From the NCBI GenBank assembly GCA_021146965.1, contig GCA_021146965.1_4847.1: 46,431 nucleotides of DNA. One strand, given 5' to 3'. The notes under the pieces are model-generated. The model made no database searches. It was not told the origin of the DNA and saw only the letters and a program-made list of their open reading frames with translations. Positions 25,547-44,232 of this stretch are shown here, in pieces; position 1 is the first letter of the stretch, and every line of letters starts with the position of its first letter. This stretch comes from a phage. Both the position numbers and the translations under genes were made by a program.

Positions 25547-26059
25547 ATGCGACCCTTAAAAGAAGAAAAACTCACGCAAGACAGGCTGAAAGAGTTGCTG
25601 CATTATAACCATGATACTGGTATTTTCACATGGGTTCAGCGCGCCTCAAAAAGCGTAAGAGTTGGTAATTCAGCTGGCAGTAAGAATAAGTCAGGCTATA
25701 TAGATATACGCATCGATAAGTCTTTACACAAAGCTCATCGGCTTGCGTGGCTTTACATTTATGGTGTGTGGCCCAATGGGAAAATAGATCACATCAATAA
25801 CGTGAAGACAGATAACAGAATCTGCAACCTGAGAGAAGCAAGCAATAATGAAAACGGATGGAATGCTGGTAAACCATCGACAAATACGTCAGGAGTAAAA
25901 GGTGTGAGTTGGGATGCAGAGAAAAATAAATGGAAGGCGCATTGCAGGGTTTTTGGGAAAAAATATACAGTAGGTAGGTTTTCATCAAAAGAATATGCTG
26001 AGAGAGCCGTGGCGGAGTTCAGAGAGAAACATCACGGGGAGTTTTTTAATCATGGCTAG
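25547..26059 (+). CDS. HNH homing endonuclease with AP2 domain (paralog 2 of 4), inserted between terS and terL
   Basis: IDHINNVKTDNRICNLREA motif plus AP2-like SGVKGVSWDAEKNKWKAHCRVFGKKYTVGRF; 3' end overlaps terL start. Confidence 0.8.
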   Translation: MRPLKEEKLTQDRLKELLHYNHDTGIFTWVQRASKSVRVGNSAGSKNKSGYIDIRIDKSLHKAHRLAWLYIYGVWPNGKIDHINNVKTDNRICNLREASNNENGWNAGKPSTNTSGVKGVSWDAEKNKWKAHCRVFGKKYTVGRFSSKEYAERAVAEFREKHHGEFFNHG

Positions 26060-27476
26060 AAAAAGACTCTCAAGTGTGGCAATCGAAAAACTTGAACAGG
26101 CGGTTGGAAACTCAACTTCAAAGCCTGAGTCTGCTGTATTTGGCATTGTTAACAAACTGCTTGCCGATGGTACGCCTAATGTTATAAAGCGCCTAAAAAT
26201 GACATCAACAGGCGTATCTGAAACAAACGAAGAACCAACAATCCTCATTCCCGAGAGAATGGAATTACTGCTTTATCCTCGTCGTTTCAAAGTGTTCTAT
26301 GGTGGTAGGGGGAGCGGAAAGACGGCTAACGTTGTTTCTTACCTCATCGAAAAGGCAAGATTCCGTAACAGTCGCGTCGGATGCTTTCGTGAGATACAGA
26401 ACTCAATCAAAGAATCAAGCTATGCCGAACTGGTTGATGAGATAAACAGGAAAGGACACACTCAGGAATATCGTTGCGTGGATGGTGAAATAACCCACCA
26501 TTCAACGAGGTCAAAGTTTGTTTTCCGTGGTTTGTGGCGAAATATAACCGCCATTAAGGGTATGGCTGGCCTTACAGATGTATTCTGTGAAGAATCAGAA
26601 AATATCAGCCAGGTTTCATGGGATACGCTAATCCCAACAGTCCGCGCCGCTGGCTCTGAAATTATTATTGTTTTTAACCCAAACAAAGAGACGGACCCGA
26701 CATGGACTAACTTTGTTGCGCCTTATATTGACAAGATGGTTGACGGCATATATCAGGATGATGACATCGTTGTTGTTAATGTTAATTACATCCACAACCC
26801 GTGGTTCACGGAAGAACTTAAGCAGCACATGAACCAGATGAAAGCTGTGGATTATGATCGCTACCTTTGGGTGTATGAAGGCTTATTCAACAAGCGGTCT
26901 GACGAAGCTGTTCTCGGGGGGAAATGGCAAACACTCGACTTTGAACCATCTCCTGAGTGGGGTGGGCCTTACTACGGCATTGACTTTGGTTTTTCTCAGG
27001 ATGCAACAGCAGCAACTGAATCATATGTAGAAGATTTGGGTGATGGACGAAGAAACCTGTATATCTATCGTGACTTTGCAAAGGTTGGCCTTGAGATAAC
27101 TGACACGCCGGAAGCGATGCGCTCAGCATTCCCAAATTCAGAGAAGTACAGATGGTATGGGGATTGCGCAAGACCTGAAACAATAAGCCATATACGACGC
27201 TCTGGATTCGATATTCATCCGTGCGCAAAATGGCCGGGGAGCATTGAGGACGGTATTACGTGGCTGCGTGGGTGTGACAGGATTTACGTGCACTCAAGAT
27301 GCAGGCACGTCATTGAAGAGATGACAATGTACAGCTATAAGGTGGACAAATTAACAGGTAACATACTCCCTGATATAGTTGATAAATACAATCACGCGAT
27401 TGATAGTTTACGCTATGGACTTGGAGATCACATCGTTCAACGCGGTAGCGGGATGCTAATCCGGCGCAGGCGATAA
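26052..27476 (+). CDS. terL: terminase large subunit
   Basis: Walker A FYGGRGSGKT; ~475 aa; start placed at ATG 26052 (track ORF begins 25995 inside HNH gene). Confidence 0.85.
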   Translation: MARKRLSSVAIEKLEQAVGNSTSKPESAVFGIVNKLLADGTPNVIKRLKMTSTGVSETNEEPTILIPERMELLLYPRRFKVFYGGRGSGKTANVVSYLIEKARFRNSRVGCFREIQNSIKESSYAELVDEINRKGHTQEYRCVDGEITHHSTRSKFVFRGLWRNITAIKGMAGLTDVFCEESENISQVSWDTLIPTVRAAGSEIIIVFNPNKETDPTWTNFVAPYIDKMVDGIYQDDDIVVVNVNYIHNPWFTEELKQHMNQMKAVDYDRYLWVYEGLFNKRSDEAVLGGKWQTLDFEPSPEWGGPYYGIDFGFSQDATAATESYVEDLGDGRRNLYIYRDFAKVGLEITDTPEAMRSAFPNSEKYRWYGDCARPETISHIRRSGFDIHPCAKWPGSIEDGITWLRGCDRIYVHSRCRHVIEEMTMYSYKVDKLTGNILPDIVDKYNHAIDSLRYGLGDHIVQRGSGMLIRRRR

Positions 27477-35820: not shown

Positions 35821-36015
35821 ATGGCGCATGACGAACTGTACGAAGAATCGTTAATCCAGAGGTTGAATGAAGTTGAGCGCACTCGCGAATGGCTGGAGTG
35901 CGAGTTACGAGAAGTGCGCAACCGCCTGCAACGCAAGCGCAGTCAGCAAAGAGATGTCATCGACTGGTCTGGGGGTACACCTAAATTTAACAATCTGGGA
36001 GAATGGTTGAAATGA
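35821..36015 (+). CDS. hypothetical coiled-coil protein
   Basis: 64-aa ORF. Confidence 0.4.
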   Translation: MAHDELYEESLIQRLNEVERTREWLECELREVRNRLQRKRSQQRDVIDWSGGTPKFNNLGEWLK

Positions 36016-36542
36016 GCAACATTAGTAAGGAAAGCATTTTAAAGTTCCTCCAGCATGATGAAAATACAGGAAACTTTCTATGGATTGATAATTTCTCAAG
36101 AAAATCAAAGAAAGGGAAGGTGGCTGGAGGTATTACATCGCATGGGTATTGGAGAATTCAACTCCCCATCGGGAGGTTTTACGCACACAGAATGGCGTGG
36201 ATTGTTTGCAATGGAGATATACCAAACGGATATGAGATTGATCACATAAATGGGAACAAGAAAGATAATCGCATCAGCAACCTAAGATTGGTCACAAGAG
36301 GTCAAAATGTTATGAATGTAGGCGTGAAAAACAATAATACAAGCGGAGTTAAGGATGTTGTTTGGGACTCTTCGCGAGAAAGGTGGAGGGTTCAAATTAC
36401 AGCCAATGGCAAGCATTATTATGGAGGTAGATTCTCGTCAATAACACAAGCAAAAGAGGAGAGGAACAGGCTCATAAAGATGGTTCACGGGAAATTTTTG
36501 AATACAAAAGGTGAGCAATATGACACTACTAATGAACGATGA
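36012..36542 (+). CDS. HNH homing endonuclease with AP2 domain (paralog 4 of 4)
   Basis: IDHINGNKKDNRISNLRLV plus AP2-like SGVKDVVWDSSRERWRVQITANGKHYYGGRF; ATG 36012 with GGGAGA RBS. Confidence 0.8.
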   Translation: MSNISKESILKFLQHDENTGNFLWIDNFSRKSKKGKVAGGITSHGYWRIQLPIGRFYAHRMAWIVCNGDIPNGYEIDHINGNKKDNRISNLRLVTRGQNVMNVGVKNNNTSGVKDVVWDSSRERWRVQITANGKHYYGGRFSSITQAKEERNRLIKMVHGKFLNTKGEQYDTTNER

Positions 36543-40452: not shown

Positions 40453-40453
<1 letters not shown>

Positions 40454-41526
40454 TGGAAAAGATTATTTTTACCAAAGACTTGGTAGCCAACTCCGCAGTG
40501 GTGGCTGACCAGTGGAAACATCTCACCATCGACCGCAAGGTGTTCTGCAATGCAGAAGCTGAACTGGCGAAAACATACGGTGTTAACGCCACCGCGCTGG
40601 TAACGAAAGATTACTGGCGCGACGTGGATAACGTCACCACCCGTGTTTTCCGCAACGAAGCTGGCCAGGACATGATGGCTGACCTGATGGGTATCGCGGC
40701 AAACATTAACATTGGTAAGACTGTGGCAATCAGCCGCATTGCTTCCGATGCTGGCAAGGTAGTCCGCACTCTGTCTGGTCAGGAGCCGGAAGACTTGGAT
40801 AAAACTCGCTACGATTACACTGGCGACGTGATTCCAATCTTCAAAACTGGCTACAGCCGCGAATGGCGCGAACTGCTGGGTATGCAGTCTGAAGGTTTTG
40901 ACCCCCTGCTGGACGATCAGGCTAACGTCACCTTTAACCTACGTTCCGACATGGCGCAGTATCTGCTGACCGGCGACCAGACTCTGAACGTGAACGGCGT
41001 TTACACTGGCTACGGTATCACCAACCACCCGAACACCATTCAGGTCAACCTGAACGTTTCCGATGGCGGCCTGAATATCGACCTGCAAACCGCAACGCCA
41101 GATGAAATCGTGAAATTCTTCAATCAGGATTTCCAGGCTATTCTGGATGCGCAGAACGTATTTGAGCAGGTGACTCTGTGGGTTTCCCCGGCAGTGCGTC
41201 GCAGTTTCATGCGTCCGTATTCTAATGCGGCTGGCTTCAAAGGCGGCACGGTTGAGCAGTACATCACGCAGTTCGGTAATGGTCGCATTGGTAAGATTGG
41301 CACCAACTTCCTGCTGACTGGCAACCATTTCGTTGGTTACGTTCGCAACGACATGTACATCCGTCCGCGTGTTGCTCAGCCTGTCTCCACCTATGCGGCA
41401 GCTCGCACCAACCCGCACGATAACTTTAACTTCCTCGTATGGTCTGCTTTCGGTCTGCAGATTCGCAAGGATGCCGCTGGAAAAAGCCGCGTCTTTAATG
41501 GCTATGGTAGCCAGAAAGCTAAATAA
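40453..41526 (+). CDS. major capsid protein (HK97-fold)
   Basis: 357-aa ORF in canonical position after protease/scaffold and decoration genes, followed by strong terminator; size and composition typical. Confidence 0.65.
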
Positions 41527-41529
41527 TAA

Positions 41530-41556
41530 AAAAGGGGGTTTATCCCCCTTCTTTGT
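41530..41556. terminator. bidirectional rho-independent terminator
   Basis: AAGGGGG-tttat-CCCCCTT hairpin flanked by A-run and T-rich tract, between convergent MCP (+) and 41540..42346 (-). Confidence 0.6.
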
Positions 41557-42346
41557 ATCTAATTTCACCGTAAACCATGTACTGTAACATGTAACAAAAC
41601 TCCCATTCCGTCATATCTGTCCGTAGCCACTTCCTGTTCTTCTTGTAATTGTACTCCGCCAGCTCCGCTTTTAAATTGTGAAGAGCATTAACCAGTTCTG
41701 GATATACGAGGTTATTCTTAACAAACCAGTTGACAGATAAAATATGGTCAATATGCCAATTATTGCGGTCATCAAAACTCATCCATGGAAGCATGGTTGA
41801 TTTTATATGCTTAATGAAATCATCCTTTGAGTACCCGAGAACATCATCTACTGTTCTATCAAGCGCAATGTCAGATACTCTCATATCAAGCCGCTCAAGC
41901 ATTTTTCTTAGGAACACGTGGTGTGGGTGCTTCTTTTGCCATTGCCTGACATTATCCAGAGCCTTTTTATTGCCTTTCTCTGAGTAGTACCATCTGCGAT
42001 AAGCTTCCCTTTTCTTTTGTAAAAACTCCTCCTTTTTCTCTGGATTCTCGTTAAGCCTTTGCATCTTCCTTTTGTTGTACTCCTGTTGTGATTGTTTTCT
42101 TTTCTTTTTGTACTCGCTGTTATCCTTGTTTTTCTGCCACTCCTTTTTTCTGTACTCACTTTCCTTGCGTTTGCGCTCCTCTGTTGTTCTCTGCTTCCTT
42201 GTTCTTTCGTATACGCAATGCTTGCATCCGCCTGATGCTGTAAAAAACACAGTTCCACCACATACAGAGCATGGAATCCATTCACACACAAATTGCTTCA
42301 GTCCAGCAACCCTTGCTTCTTGCGCGGCTTCTTTTCTTGTTTTCAT
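41540..42346 (-). CDS. zinc-ribbon protein with Lys/Glu-rich low-complexity region and C-terminal HNH-like motif
   Basis: N-terminal CEWIPCSVCGG...CKHC zinc ribbon; ~100-aa K/R/E-rich segment; C-terminal NWHIDHILSVN...NALHNL reminiscent of HNH core; AGGAG RBS. Confidence 0.5.
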   Translation of the reverse strand: MKTRKEAAQEARVAGLKQFVCEWIPCSVCGGTVFFTASGGCKHCVYERTRKQRTTEERKRKESEYRKKEWQKNKDNSEYKKKRKQSQQEYNKRKMQRLNENPEKKEEFLQKKREAYRRWYYSEKGNKKALDNVRQWQKKHPHHVFLRKMLERLDMRVSDIALDRTVDDVLGYSKDDFIKHIKSTMLPWMSFDDRNNWHIDHILSVNWFVKNNLVYPELVNALHNLKAELAEYNYKKNRKWLRTDMTEWEFCYMLQYMVYGEIRYKEGG

Positions 42347-42432
42347 AAAGTCACTCCTAATTTGGTTTTATATTACCACGAGTGTAACTAGTGTGCTACA
42401 ATTAACCAGCATTAACTCATGAGGATATTTAA

Positions 42433-42630
42433 ATGGCTAAATACGAAGTGATTGCGCGAGGCATCTTTGTCAAAGAAAAAGGCAAGATTCGTGAGTTGCA
42501 GCTTGGCGAGGTGATTACCGAACCTGCTGATCATCTGATGTCAAAGCTGCGCGTTATGCCAGAACTGGAAAAATCTTTCGAAGTCGCAACCCCGCAAGAA
42601 AAGACGACAAAGAAAAAGAAAGCAGAGTAA
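42433..42630 (+). CDS. hypothetical protein
   Basis: 65-aa ORF with GAGGA RBS followed by terminator. Confidence 0.45.
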   Translation: MAKYEVIARGIFVKEKGKIRELQLGEVITEPADHLMSKLRVMPELEKSFEVATPQEKTTKKKKAE

Positions 42631-42635
42631 ACTGA

Positions 42636-42660
42636 ACCCGCATAATGCGGGTTTTTTATT
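42636..42660 (+). terminator. rho-independent terminator
   Basis: ACCCGCAT-a-ATGCGGGT hairpin followed by TTTTTTATT. Confidence 0.65.
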
Positions 42661-42670
42661 GGGGGTTTCT

Positions 42671-43489
42671 ATGGCTGTCAGGTACGAAATAAACACAACT
42701 CCGGCTGACGGAGAGGTTTTGCTTAGCGAAACCATGTCTGCGGACTGGTCAGCATTACAGGTGCAGATTGTGCCGCTAAATTCTTCCGGTGGCTATGTGC
42801 CATTAACAAGCGGGTCTGTTTACGTAATGGTATCGCCGTTTGCGTCTGGTGATTTCTGGATTGACGTCAACAATAATAATTATTATGGCGTAGCGCTGCG
42901 GCTGAAGGTGATCAAGTCCCAAATACCTGCTGGCATTGCATCTCTGAAAGTCCTTGTATGGCGAGCAGCTACATCAGTGCCATCAAGTCAGGTTGTGGCA
43001 CAGTCCTATGCAGAGTTTGCTAACAAGCAAGGGAAGTTATTCACTGCGTCGCGCAGAGTAACTGATGTCGCTGGCAGCTCAAACCTTGACAGCATATTTA
43101 TCACCGGAACAAAGCAGGTGATATTCAACCAGCGCATTATTGGTTACACGGGGAAAGGTGTTGTTGCATCAATCTATCGCGGCGCAGTTGCCACTGGCGG
43201 TACGACGGCAGAGATTAACAACCCAAACGACATAACGCCACAAGCAGCTACGGCGCAGTTAATTACTGGCGCTACCGTGACAAACATCGGGCAGCTGACG
43301 GTGGCGGCAACATACAGTGAGGGTAACGCATCGAATCAGGGGCAGGGTAACTCGCAGGCGAAGCTCGGCGAGCAGATTATCATGGCACCGAATACGACGT
43401 ACTTACTTCGCATAACATCACTAGATACTGCGGCGCAGAATATCAATGCGTACGTTTCATGGTTTGAGGATGATACTTATCTGGCGTGA
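42671..43489 (+). CDS. hypothetical protein (possible structural/decoration protein)
   Basis: ATG 42671 (track starts at TTG 42659); Ser/Thr/Gly/Ala-rich beta-like composition. Confidence 0.45.
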   Translation: MAVRYEINTTPADGEVLLSETMSADWSALQVQIVPLNSSGGYVPLTSGSVYVMVSPFASGDFWIDVNNNNYYGVALRLKVIKSQIPAGIASLKVLVWRAATSVPSSQVVAQSYAEFANKQGKLFTASRRVTDVAGSSNLDSIFITGTKQVIFNQRIIGYTGKGVVASIYRGAVATGGTTAEINNPNDITPQAATAQLITGATVTNIGQLTVAATYSEGNASNQGQGNSQAKLGEQIIMAPNTTYLLRITSLDTAAQNINAYVSWFEDDTYLA

Positions 43490-43522: not shown

Positions 43523-44059
43523 CTACAGACGCATAGGCATAACAACAATCTTCGCAGTCTCTCCAGATGGCGCACTAAGACAGCAAACAGCGGCATCTGT
43601 GTTTCCATTTAGTTCAAATTTAACGCAACAGAATCTTGGGTTAAACAGCTTTGCCACCTTCTCGATATCAACAAGGTAGCCAGCATTGAAGCCAATTTTC
43701 TCTGCCGGCAAGGTCTGATTCGGAATGACGCGATCAATATCAGGGAATCGACCATCAATCTCTTCGCAGATACCTGCTCCAACCATCGCGCCGGCTTCAT
43801 CATGATACGTTGCAATTTTCGACTTTGTATCAATGATGGCGTGCTCATAACGCTTTGTTGGTGACTTGCCAATCTTGATGATTACATTTTCTGTCAGCTT
43901 ATTGTCATGGTTGCCACCAATAAATGCGCGATGACCGTCAGTTGAGGCAATGCGACCATCTTGCATAAAGCAAATACCATTCAGGTAGTAGCGCACATCA
44001 TTGCGAGCCTGAAAGATTAATGCTGATTCAAGTAATAATTTGCTGATTTTTAGTTTCAT
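43523..44059 (-). CDS. truncated DnaN (DNA polymerase III beta sliding clamp)-like protein
   Basis: ~178 aa; N-terminal ~115 aa align with E. coli beta clamp domain II (NDVRYYLNG, STDGHRAF, EEIDGRFPDIDRVIP vs QDVRYYLNG, ATDGHRLA, KLVDGRFPDYRRVLP); C-terminal ~60 aa align with the end of domain III and finish with VVMPMRL, identical to the DnaN C-terminus; start at ATG 44059 (AGGTG RBS). Confidence 0.7.
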   Translation of the reverse strand: MKLKISKLLLESALIFQARNDVRYYLNGICFMQDGRIASTDGHRAFIGGNHDNKLTENVIIKIGKSPTKRYEHAIIDTKSKIATYHDEAGAMVGAGICEEIDGRFPDIDRVIPNQTLPAEKIGFNAGYLVDIEKVAKLFNPRFCCVKFELNGNTDAAVCCLSAPSGETAKIVVMPMRL

Positions 44060-44232
44060 CACTTCACCTTAATCATGTGTTGTTTTGCAACCTTCAGGCA
44101 TTCTTCAAAAATGCCACCATTCTTTGCGCTCTGATTGCGCTTGTAATACTGAATTGCCGCATCAATTGCCATCTGGTCGATTTCAGGCAGTTTTGCGCGC
44201 AGCTGTTTTTCGATGAATTGTTCGGCGTTCAT
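44059..44232 (-). CDS. small hypothetical protein (57 aa)
   Basis: ORF MNAEQFIEKQLRAKLPEIDQ...; stop overlaps start of DnaN-like gene; below track cut-off. Confidence 0.4.
   Translation of the reverse strand: MNAEQFIEKQLRAKLPEIDQMAIDAAIQYYKRNQSAKNGGIFEECLKVAKQHMIKVK

Follow-up and report, generated by a model that had tools for sequence, protein, structure and literature searches.

A candidate free-standing HNH homing endonuclease gene antisense to, and directly behind, the major capsid gene of a T1-like phage

The gene behind the major capsid gene

The window analysed here is a stretch of 46,431 nucleotides of phage DNA (GenBank assembly GCA_021146965.1, contig GCA_021146965.1_4847.1) and constitutes essentially the whole genome of a T1-like phage (Drexlerviridae). 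The gene in question is a minus-strand open reading frame (ORF), 41540..42346, that follows the major capsid gene and encodes a putative nuclease of the HNH/His-Me-finger kind; it is considered below as a candidate free-standing homing endonuclease gene. The ORF is complete in the ORF list of the window, with 268 codons and a stop, and the locus is 99.1% identical to that of Salmonella phage vB_SenS_ST1UNAM. The stop codons of the ORF and the capsid gene are 13 nt apart and the two genes are convergent, tail-to-tail, which agrees with the original prediction of an antisense gene directly after the major capsid gene. On the other side lies a small conserved late gene, divergent from the start of the ORF and separated from it by an 86-bp spacer. 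The HNH ORF is stand-alone and intergenic with a ribosome-binding site of its own, it is not inside an intron or intein, and no paralogue of it was found in the window genome. The features of the locus are collected in Table 1.

Table 1. Features of the HNH gene and its flanks, in window coordinates. Filled sites are those that carry the HNH gene; dN/dS is the ratio of nonsynonymous to synonymous substitution rates.
Feature	Coordinates	Strand	Basis
Complete gene (zinc finger, basic helical segment, predicted HNH domain, clade-specific C-terminal helix)	41540..42346	-	ORF call, 14 orthologues, dN/dS, AlphaFold2 model
N-terminal zinc module, residues ~17-46, ligands C26/C29/C41/C44	42209..42298	-	alignment, AlphaFold2 model
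Basic K/R/E/Q-rich helical segment, residues 47-140	41927..42208	-	composition, AlphaFold2 model
Predicted HNH / His-Me-finger nuclease domain, residues 141-237	41636..41926	-	beta-beta-alpha core, residues 197-236 = 41639-41758
Clade-specific C-terminal extension, residues 238-268, helix 247-259	41543..41635	-	alignment within T1-like clade
Predicted bidirectional terminator hairpin common to capsid gene and HNH ORF	41528..41554	both	folding
Shine-Dalgarno AGGAG	42354..42358	-	sequence; region kept in filled-site relatives
Invariant AAAACCAAAT (42360-42369) and -10-like TAATAT (42370-42375)	42360..42375	-	alignment, seven filled loci
Outward promoter-like site TTACCA-18-TACAAT with TG extension	42373..42402	+	sigma-70 scan and alignment
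Hypervariable capsid-gene 3' end, left edge of mosaic block	41461..41526	+	sliding comparison
Major capsid gene	40453..41526	+	Pfam DUF6260 at 8e-113, phrog_771 at 2.5e-133
Small late gene phrog_2138, right edge of insertion slot	42433..42630	+	PHROG match

The ORF is a genuine gene, and strong purifying selection acts on it. Fourteen orthologues were recovered with 53-97% identity, and for pairs with unsaturated synonymous sites dN/dS is 0.084 (window against VSt472), 0.098 (sal3 against ZCEC08), 0.104 (RCIP0071 against BUCT610) and 0.058 (window against sal3).

The C-terminal HNH-like motif that had been noticed in the sequence, W197-H-I-D200-H201-I ... N220 ... H223-N224-L, is intact and is followed by N233 and K236. 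D200, H201, N224, N233 and K236 are invariant in 116 of 116 homologues, and H198 is present in 108 of them. AlphaFold2 predicts a beta-beta-alpha core made up of strand 197-201, strand 225-229 and helix 230-236. The mean predicted local distance difference test score (pLDDT) is 92.3 for the full-length protein, and residues 141-268 modelled alone give a pLDDT of 87.8 and a predicted template modelling score of 0.79; in fold searches with the full-length protein the long helices drowned out other signals. A Pfam search had been proposed as a check on the original prediction, and it gave weak HNH matches (PF01844) for 19 of 72 diverse relatives, with all inspected matches below the gathering score and a best E of 1.7e-4. 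Judging from the motif, the model, these weak matches and the PHROG 1035 match given below, membership of the HNH/His-Me-finger superfamily is well supported, while membership of any curated HNH subfamily is not supported. The NCBIfam search with the window protein rendered only weak matches to unrelated families, far under the cut-offs, and the PADLOC defence and anti-defence models rendered none. Matches to PDB sequences were at chance level, and a PDB profile search with 72 relatives hit only a designed helical protein (E = 0.14).

PHROG 1035, which carries the label 'endonuclease VII', is matched at 4e-19 over residues 2-257. With this label, and with homologues that lie directly upstream of the terminase in Acinetobacter Obolenskvirus and in the metagenomic contig L104, the protein could be seen as a junction resolvase of the endonuclease VII kind, or as an HNH protein involved in packaging, that processes branched DNA or helps the terminase. 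The label is not supported, since PF02945 is matched neither by the window protein (E <= 1) nor by the 72 relatives (E <= 0.01) and the nuclease domain has no embedded Cys4. The protein has cysteines at positions 21, 26, 29, 41, 44 and 251 only, and C251 is the sole one in residues 141-268. The large terminase gene (25995..27476) is also about 14 kb away. The HNH gene is missing from about 95% of the relatives, so it cannot be an essential packaging or resolution factor. A role in resolution or packaging is therefore considered very unlikely.

The predicted N-terminal CxxC...CxxC pattern is present and conserved as C26-x2-C29 and C41-x2-C44. C26, C41 and C44 are each found in at least 97% of the 116 homologues. 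The ligand pattern in 96 of the 116 aligned homologues is C26/H31/C41/C44, with H31 as the second ligand, whereas all 14 members of the T1 clade have C26/C29/C41/C44 and never H31. Such a swap of ligands is as expected if a four-ligand metal site is preserved. The idea of a zinc ribbon thus holds as regards the four-ligand site, but the fold is probably another one: the AlphaFold2 model places C41-x2-C44 at the N-terminal end of helix 42-54, and the module appears to be nearer to a treble clef than to a classical two-hairpin ribbon. The zinc module is portable, because one homologue (P0247) has this motif at its N-terminus joined to a canonical HNH/HNH_5 domain of Pfam.

The C-terminal tail (residues 238-268) is specific to the T1-like clade and is the most conserved stretch of the protein there, with W240, W248, C251-Q255, M257-Y259 and E261-R263 invariant. 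Most of the distant homologues end near residue 237. The constraint on the tail acts on the protein and not on the DNA, because synonymous differences pile up between clades.

The charged segment and the wider family

Residues 47-140 are rich in K, R, E and Q, with 35 K+R against 16 D+E. The coding strand of this region (residues ~47-140) is 68-82% purine with runs of A, and the plus strand is correspondingly CT-rich at ~42060-42200. Both the composition and the purine-rich tract agree with the charged low-complexity segment of about 100 residues that had been described. On the other hand, the segment is not disordered filler, because AlphaFold2 predicts long helices throughout residues 42-152 with a pLDDT of 96-97, the charged segment included; a check for disorder had been suggested and the confident helices speak against it. 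The charged segment is also the fastest evolving part of the protein, with a dN of 0.33-0.50 compared with 0.12-0.27 for the HNH domain, and it has 47-60% nucleotide identity between alleles. The zinc finger and the basic helical segment together presumably form the DNA-recognition part of the protein.

Most members of the family have a tandem array of 15-residue repeats at the same position, following the pattern [YW]-x3-N-[KP]-[ED]-K-x6-[KR]. The number of repeat motifs varies from none to eight per protein. The distance from one motif to the next is exactly 15 residues in 189 of 306 cases, 30 in 24 and 45 in 7. P0164 has six near-perfect 15-residue units. Isolated arrays have no match in Pfam at E <= 10, and full-length P0164 gave only chance-level matches to PDB sequences. 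The charged segment of the window protein was tried as a degenerate form of such an array and this was rejected, as a hidden Markov model of the repeat scores it no better than 170 of 300 shuffles. Since the model finds no remnant in the window protein, positional equivalence is all that the T1-like clade allows. To the eye the segment has an apparent period of ~25 residues.

The array is a candidate for a new DNA-binding module. A more far-reaching suggestion is that the accessory region of the family is a new modular DNA-recognition domain, with one CHCC or CCCC zinc finger and a helical array of variable length in which the length and identity of the target would follow from the number and sequence of the 15-residue repeats, in loose analogy to STPR or TALE arrays. 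The T1-like clade would then be derived, with the array fused into longer helices, and its rapid divergence (the dN given above) would track target changes at the 3' end of the capsid gene. This is a speculative and quite unlikely extension.

An exhaustive profile search gave 6,845 cluster representatives at E <= 1e-3, of which 587 are found at E <= 1e-10. Many members of the family are about 240 amino acids long and match positions 9-237, and nearly all are without a name and without a Pfam domain. Large as the family is, none of Pfam, NCBIfam and PADLOC has a model for it, and the PDB contains no relative of it by sequence. Full-text literature searches, which covered few papers, found no description of the HNH gene, the family or its repeat array.

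Distant homologues (23-35% identity) occur in many unrelated phages and in varying surroundings. One lies beside the DNA polymerase gene and an HNH_3/AP2 endonuclease gene in a Felix-O1-like phage, others among early or replication genes in Vibrio phages, and one between the genes for a YqaJ exonuclease and a helicase; the copies upstream of the terminase were mentioned above. In an unrelated phage contig, P0179 (229 aa, L103:3501-4190) forms an antisense island between the genes for a prohead protease (Peptidase_S78) and an HK97-type major capsid protein. This is a second, independent backward insertion of the family into a head-gene module.

The position found in the window, antisense right after a capsid gene and with a shared terminator, recurs after a PF09950 capsid gene in three metagenomic copies (L015-L017, ~25% identity) and in a Jedunavirus copy (L019). 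A survey of 80 viral-contig loci found the antisense-after-capsid layout once, on a contig already counted. The layout is therefore the habit of one sub-lineage sharing a DUF2213-cement-capsid module and not a rule of the family. A deep functional tie to the capsid gene was considered and rejected on the strength of this survey and of other near relatives that lie elsewhere. The capsid C-termini are not conserved between the lineages. A plausible explanation for the position is that the spacer past the strong capsid terminator is a safe harbour, where an antisense gene would break no operon and would escape the very high late transcription.

Occupancy, mosaicism and signals of the slot

The insert is found in 10-11 of 194 (megablast) or 206 (blastn) related phage records, which is about 5%. 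The states of the slot were counted in a sample of 60 rows spread down the blastn ranking. Four rows have the slot filled with the HNH gene, 48 have an empty slot with a span of 403-543 bp, six have a span of 838-908 bp, and in two a single flank was matched. The spacer between the capsid gene and the small gene is 906 bp in the window, compared with 41 bp in HC6 and 43 bp in Skate. More distant orthologues, with 57-62% identity, fill the slot of two Klebsiella phages, RCIP0071 and BUCT610, and of the Swiduovirus CF-SP1, a Salmonella phage.

Four records of intermediate span were inspected and all have an unrelated sense-strand gene of 115-126 amino acids in the slot (41527-42432 in the window), belonging to PF13876 (N4 gp49 / Sf6 gene 66, function unknown). 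These are Salmonella phages STGO-35-1 and LPST10, Klebsiella phage MK54 and Vibrio phage pYD38-A (L006:570-917, L007:570-917, L008:570-950 and L009:571-945). In three of these records the end of the PF13876 gene runs into the beginning of the small gene, and the MK54 record annotates no small gene there. All three states of the slot are found within the single genus Skatevirus: VSt472 carries the HNH gene, the slot of Skate is empty and that of LPST10 is taken by the PF13876 gene.

Directly beside this slot is a second variable slot, occupied in the window by a phrog_5335 gene (42659..43489, plus strand, 276 aa, function unknown) that is absent from VSt472, 64795_sal3, ZCEC08, LPST10 and Skate. 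Without it, the small gene abuts a minus-strand cluster in VSt472, 64795_sal3, LPST10 and Skate, and a gap of 183 bp is found in ZCEC08. The gene after it (43523..44062, minus strand, 179 aa) has conflicting labels in GenBank, 'DNA polymerase III beta subunit' and 'RusA-like Holliday junction resolvase', and neither is established; its product matches phrog_3007 strongly and the sliding-clamp models of Pfam weakly (E ~0.01-0.05).

The history of the HNH gene differs from that of its flanks (Table 2). The capsid protein of HC6, which has an empty site, is as near to that of the window (96.9%) as are those of filled-site phages whose copy of the HNH protein is 77% identical. Between the window and 64795_sal3, dS is 2.6 for the HNH gene and 0.31 for the capsid gene.

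Table 2. Protein identity to the window (%) for the HNH gene and the two flanking genes.
Phage	Slot	HNH gene	Capsid	Small gene
ST1UNAM	filled	100	98.9	100
VSt472	filled	96.3	98.0	90.8
64795_sal3	filled	76.9	95.8	87.7
ZCEC08	filled	76.5	96.4	90.8
RCIP0071	filled	62.3	78.5	60.0
CF-SP1	filled	57.5	79.3	70.8
HC6	empty	none	96.9	90.8

The same two phages differ in a mosaic fashion with sharp breakpoints at ~41453 and ~42218. In 60-nt sliding comparisons the identity is at least 0.85, and mostly at least 0.9, up to position 41452, it is 0.47-0.82 over 41453-42218 with one island of 0.92, and it is 0.91-1.00 from 42219 on, that is, in the zinc-finger codons and the spacer. At the left breakpoint, in the 3' end of the capsid gene, the fall is from at least 0.9 to 0.55-0.67. 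Divergent alleles of the nuclease and the helical module have therefore been swapped into otherwise near-identical backbones, and the terminal ~75 bp of the capsid gene with them.

The 3' tract of the capsid gene (~41461-41514) shows 3-9 times the divergence of the gene body when site classes are compared, and 93-100% identity within a class. The changes are mostly synonymous and include six-fold-codon swaps at Ser and Arg. The tract was considered as a target-site or immunity signature specific to the HNH gene, and this was rejected because the same excess is found between two empty-site genomes. It is a general hotspot tied to the slot and not a clean signature of the HNH gene.

Apparently decayed copies are also found. 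In two metagenome assemblies the copy in this slot (L106:1500-2296 and L107:2157-2953) lacks one nucleotide of an A6 run near codon 119, which splits the gene into ORFs of 129 and 150 amino acids while the HNH half is otherwise intact. Two further homologues (P0017 and P0018) are truncated by frameshifts in A-runs of the charged region, and the A-rich tract may be a mutational hotspot. Such copies fit the decay phase of a selfish element.

Some of the signals that had been predicted around the gene were recovered. The Shine-Dalgarno sequence AGGAG lies 7 nt ahead of the ATG, in line with the predicted ribosome-binding site. Just 5' of it is a 10-mer, AAAACCAAAT, that is invariant in 7 of 7 filled loci despite proteins of down to 57% identity, and that could be a putative translational or transcriptional control element. 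The alignment of the seven filled loci also shows a conserved -10-like TAnnAT on the strand of the ORF, without a -35; TAATAT with AAAACCAAAT is thus a candidate for a weak promoter or an element of the 5' untranslated region.

The gene had been described as flanked by terminators, and this is true of its 3' end. The hairpin there folds well on either strand, with energies of -14.9 and -16.9 kcal/mol (z -3.4 and -3.7) and T-runs on both sides, and as predicted from folding it can terminate both the capsid gene and the HNH ORF. The last codons of the ORF (K-E-G-G) and its stop codon lie inside the stem and loop, and an equivalent terminator follows the capsid gene in empty-site phages too. Between the start of the ORF and the small gene no terminator was found, and the next one (42634-42654) comes after the small gene.

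A promoter-like region of the gene's own was not confirmed. The sole sigma-70-like match in the 86-bp upstream spacer, listed in Table 1, faces away from the ORF, and the promoter-like sites in the region are not more numerous than in shuffles (2 versus 2.5 +/- 1.7). The outward site is nevertheless conserved, as the plus-strand TGnTAyAAT is kept in all filled sites, even at 57% protein identity, and is absent from the empty sites, where the small gene starts about 20 nt past the capsid terminator. From this comparison of sites, the cassette seems to bring a promoter for the displaced small gene, which would formerly have been on the capsid transcript. Promoters for downstream genes have been described in the free-standing endonuclease cassettes of T4 (PMC2988022).

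The layout is also what led to the proposal that the gene is an independent moron. Independent insertion is borne out by its absence from about 95% of the relatives, and the gene is a separate unit with a ribosome-binding site and a terminator between late genes; the term 'moron' fits this layout only. The zinc finger and the basic helices resemble DNA-binding modules, and the protein might in principle be a non-catalytic regulator with the HNH fold as a mere scaffold. Either version, a strict moron in the sense of an autonomous accessory gene or a regulator, is very unlikely. The catalytic motif is invariant in 116 sequences, which is unexpected for a purely structural role, and there is no evident promoter on the strand of the ORF. 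No integrase or repressor is seen in the partly annotated gene map, so there is no evident prophage state. A homing gene is preferred over a moron because of the nuclease fold, the sporadic distribution, the discordant history, the mosaic flanks and the scattered homologues.

The homing reading and known systems

The gene is interpreted as a free-standing HNH homing endonuclease cassette, with a probability of roughly 0.6. The interpretation is suggested by the intact HNH motif, the intergenic slot, the patchy presence within a genus, the discordant history with sharp edges, the outward promoter-like site, the apparent pseudogenes and the scattered homologues by essential genes. Such combined evidence defines free-standing homing endonuclease genes in T-even and ICP1-like phages (PMC2988022, PMC10448857). 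These genes are placed between conserved genes, cut a neighbouring gene and co-convert the flanks (PMC2988022); in phages they cluster by capsid, terminase and replication genes and mark the boundaries of exchange (PMC10448857). The nuclease activity, the target site and homing itself are predicted for the window gene.

The course of events might be as follows. The cassette lies where there is otherwise a spacer of ~41 bp from the capsid terminator to the following late gene, it runs antisense into the terminator, and its outward promoter-like element could restore the expression of the displaced small gene. In a mixed infection the enzyme would nick or cut a gene-free relative in or near the 3' end of the capsid gene or in the spacer. 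Recombinational repair from the donor would then copy the cassette together with flanking sequence, and this copying could yield both the patchy distribution and the mosaic tract.

Several observations weigh against homing. In Pfam the window protein has no relevant match and no HNH model is hit (PF01844, PF13391, PF13392, PF13395, PF14279), even at E <= 1. No sigma-70 promoter that meets the scan criteria is present on the ORF's own strand. Control pairs show an excess divergence in the capsid 3' tract as well, 3.8-fold for Skate and HC6, both empty, and 6.8-fold for two PF13876-bearing phages, and the tract may be just a general mosaic junction. The frameshifts of the apparently decayed copies may be errors of sequencing, as they fall in homopolymer runs. 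Orthologues with 57-62% identity fill the slot in several genera, with a divergence that broadly follows the flanks, and the gene is kept in 9 of the 9 closest Jedunavirus-like genomes. A long stay at one site and strong purifying selection suit a retained useful nuclease equally well.

These last points lead to the possibility that the HNH nuclease is domesticated or beneficial and no longer mainly selfish. It might exclude co-infecting relatives, degrade the DNA of the host or of competitors, or promote local recombination or amplification. The low dN/dS (0.06-0.10), the filled slot in several genera of the Drexlerviridae, the full retention in the Jedunavirus-like genomes and the antisense post-capsid position held at ~25% identity in L015-L017 and L019 all agree with this, and a published precedent exists in SegB, a homing endonuclease that aids immune evasion (PMC13096335). 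However, about 95% of the T1-like relatives are without the gene, apparently frameshifted copies exist, and no PADLOC defence or anti-defence model is matched. The idea is unlikely as an alternative, and it is also compatible with selfish homing and thereby partly a refinement of the homing endonuclease interpretation and not a true rival.

The kind of element proposed here is well known, and the gene itself is already deposited, unannotated, in at least 10 phage genomes. What is new is the functional assignment, the place of the gene in a very large family without a model, and the architecture of a zinc finger with 15-residue repeats. If the homing endonuclease interpretation is true, it provides an annotation for a 'hypothetical protein' of at least 10 deposited Drexlerviridae genomes and a working functional label for an uncurated family of 6,845 representatives. 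The local mosaicism where the major capsid gene ends would also be explained; this gene is a routine phylogenetic marker, and trees should then leave out its final ~75 bp and the spacer downstream of it. An active homing nuclease would furthermore bias recombination and the inheritance of markers among T1-like phages mixed in therapy cocktails. The general picture of phage homing endonucleases is unchanged, with a new architecture added to it.

The closest parallels in architecture are the mobA-mobE genes of T4, of which mobE is the best studied. They likewise combine HNH with a separate presumed DNA-binding region, are intergenic and patchy, and show gene conversion of the flanks (PMC2988022, PMC2790892). 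The order of the parts is reversed, however: the T4 mob proteins have HNH at the N-terminus and a distinct C-terminal region, whereas in the window protein the zinc finger and the basic helices come first, and the comparison is one of architecture, with the activity of the window protein predicted. The setting is the same as for segD, a free-standing endonuclease gene between gene 23 (major capsid) and gene 24 of T4 (PMC2988022). SegD differs in being a GIY-YIG and not an HNH protein and in belonging to another phage family, and its activity and target are listed as not determined (PMC2988022).

T4 endonuclease VII (gp49, PF02945) is likewise a member of the His-Me-finger superfamily and binds zinc through cysteines, as is predicted for the window protein. 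It is a dimeric junction resolvase with its Cys4 zinc site embedded in the nuclease domain. In the window protein the zinc site is instead a separate N-terminal module, PF02945 is not matched, and the gene is dispensable in most relatives. The gene is also unlike the terminase-associated HNH genes of the HK97 gp74 type in its distance of ~14 kb from the TerL gene and in not being universal.

The structure of I-HmuI described by Shen et al. in 2004 reportedly has a D-H pair, with Asn in place of the last His. HNH enzymes of the I-HmuI type likewise have a His-Me-finger core and derive their specificity from extended accessory modules (PMC5714182). Those modules are NUMOD, helix-turn-helix or AP2 domains and the enzymes are often intron-encoded. 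Of the Pfam models, HNH_3 and zf-His_Me_endon both fail to match the window protein. It is the other HNH gene of the window (36003..36542, plus strand, 179 aa, phrog_99 at 2.7e-58), unrelated to ORF 41540..42346, that falls in the I-HmuI / HNH_3 group. It shares its PHROG with an HNH_3 and AP2 gene beside the DNA polymerase gene of Salmonella phage SeKF_13, and is another candidate for a free-standing homing endonuclease. IPA-HNH (Barth et al.) was also considered and set aside, as its architecture is another one: HNH comes first there and an AP2 domain forms the C-terminus.

A last parallel is found in the T5orf172 homing endonuclease genes with repeated zinc fingers of the CapR/DUF723 type (Barth et al. 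2023). They too are located by capsid, terminase or replication genes, have a modular and repetitive DNA-binding region whose evolution proceeds by shuffling, and lie at exchange boundaries (PMC10448857). Their nuclease is GIY-YIG-like and their zinc fingers are independently folded, whereas the family described here has HNH, one zinc finger and 15-residue helical repeats.

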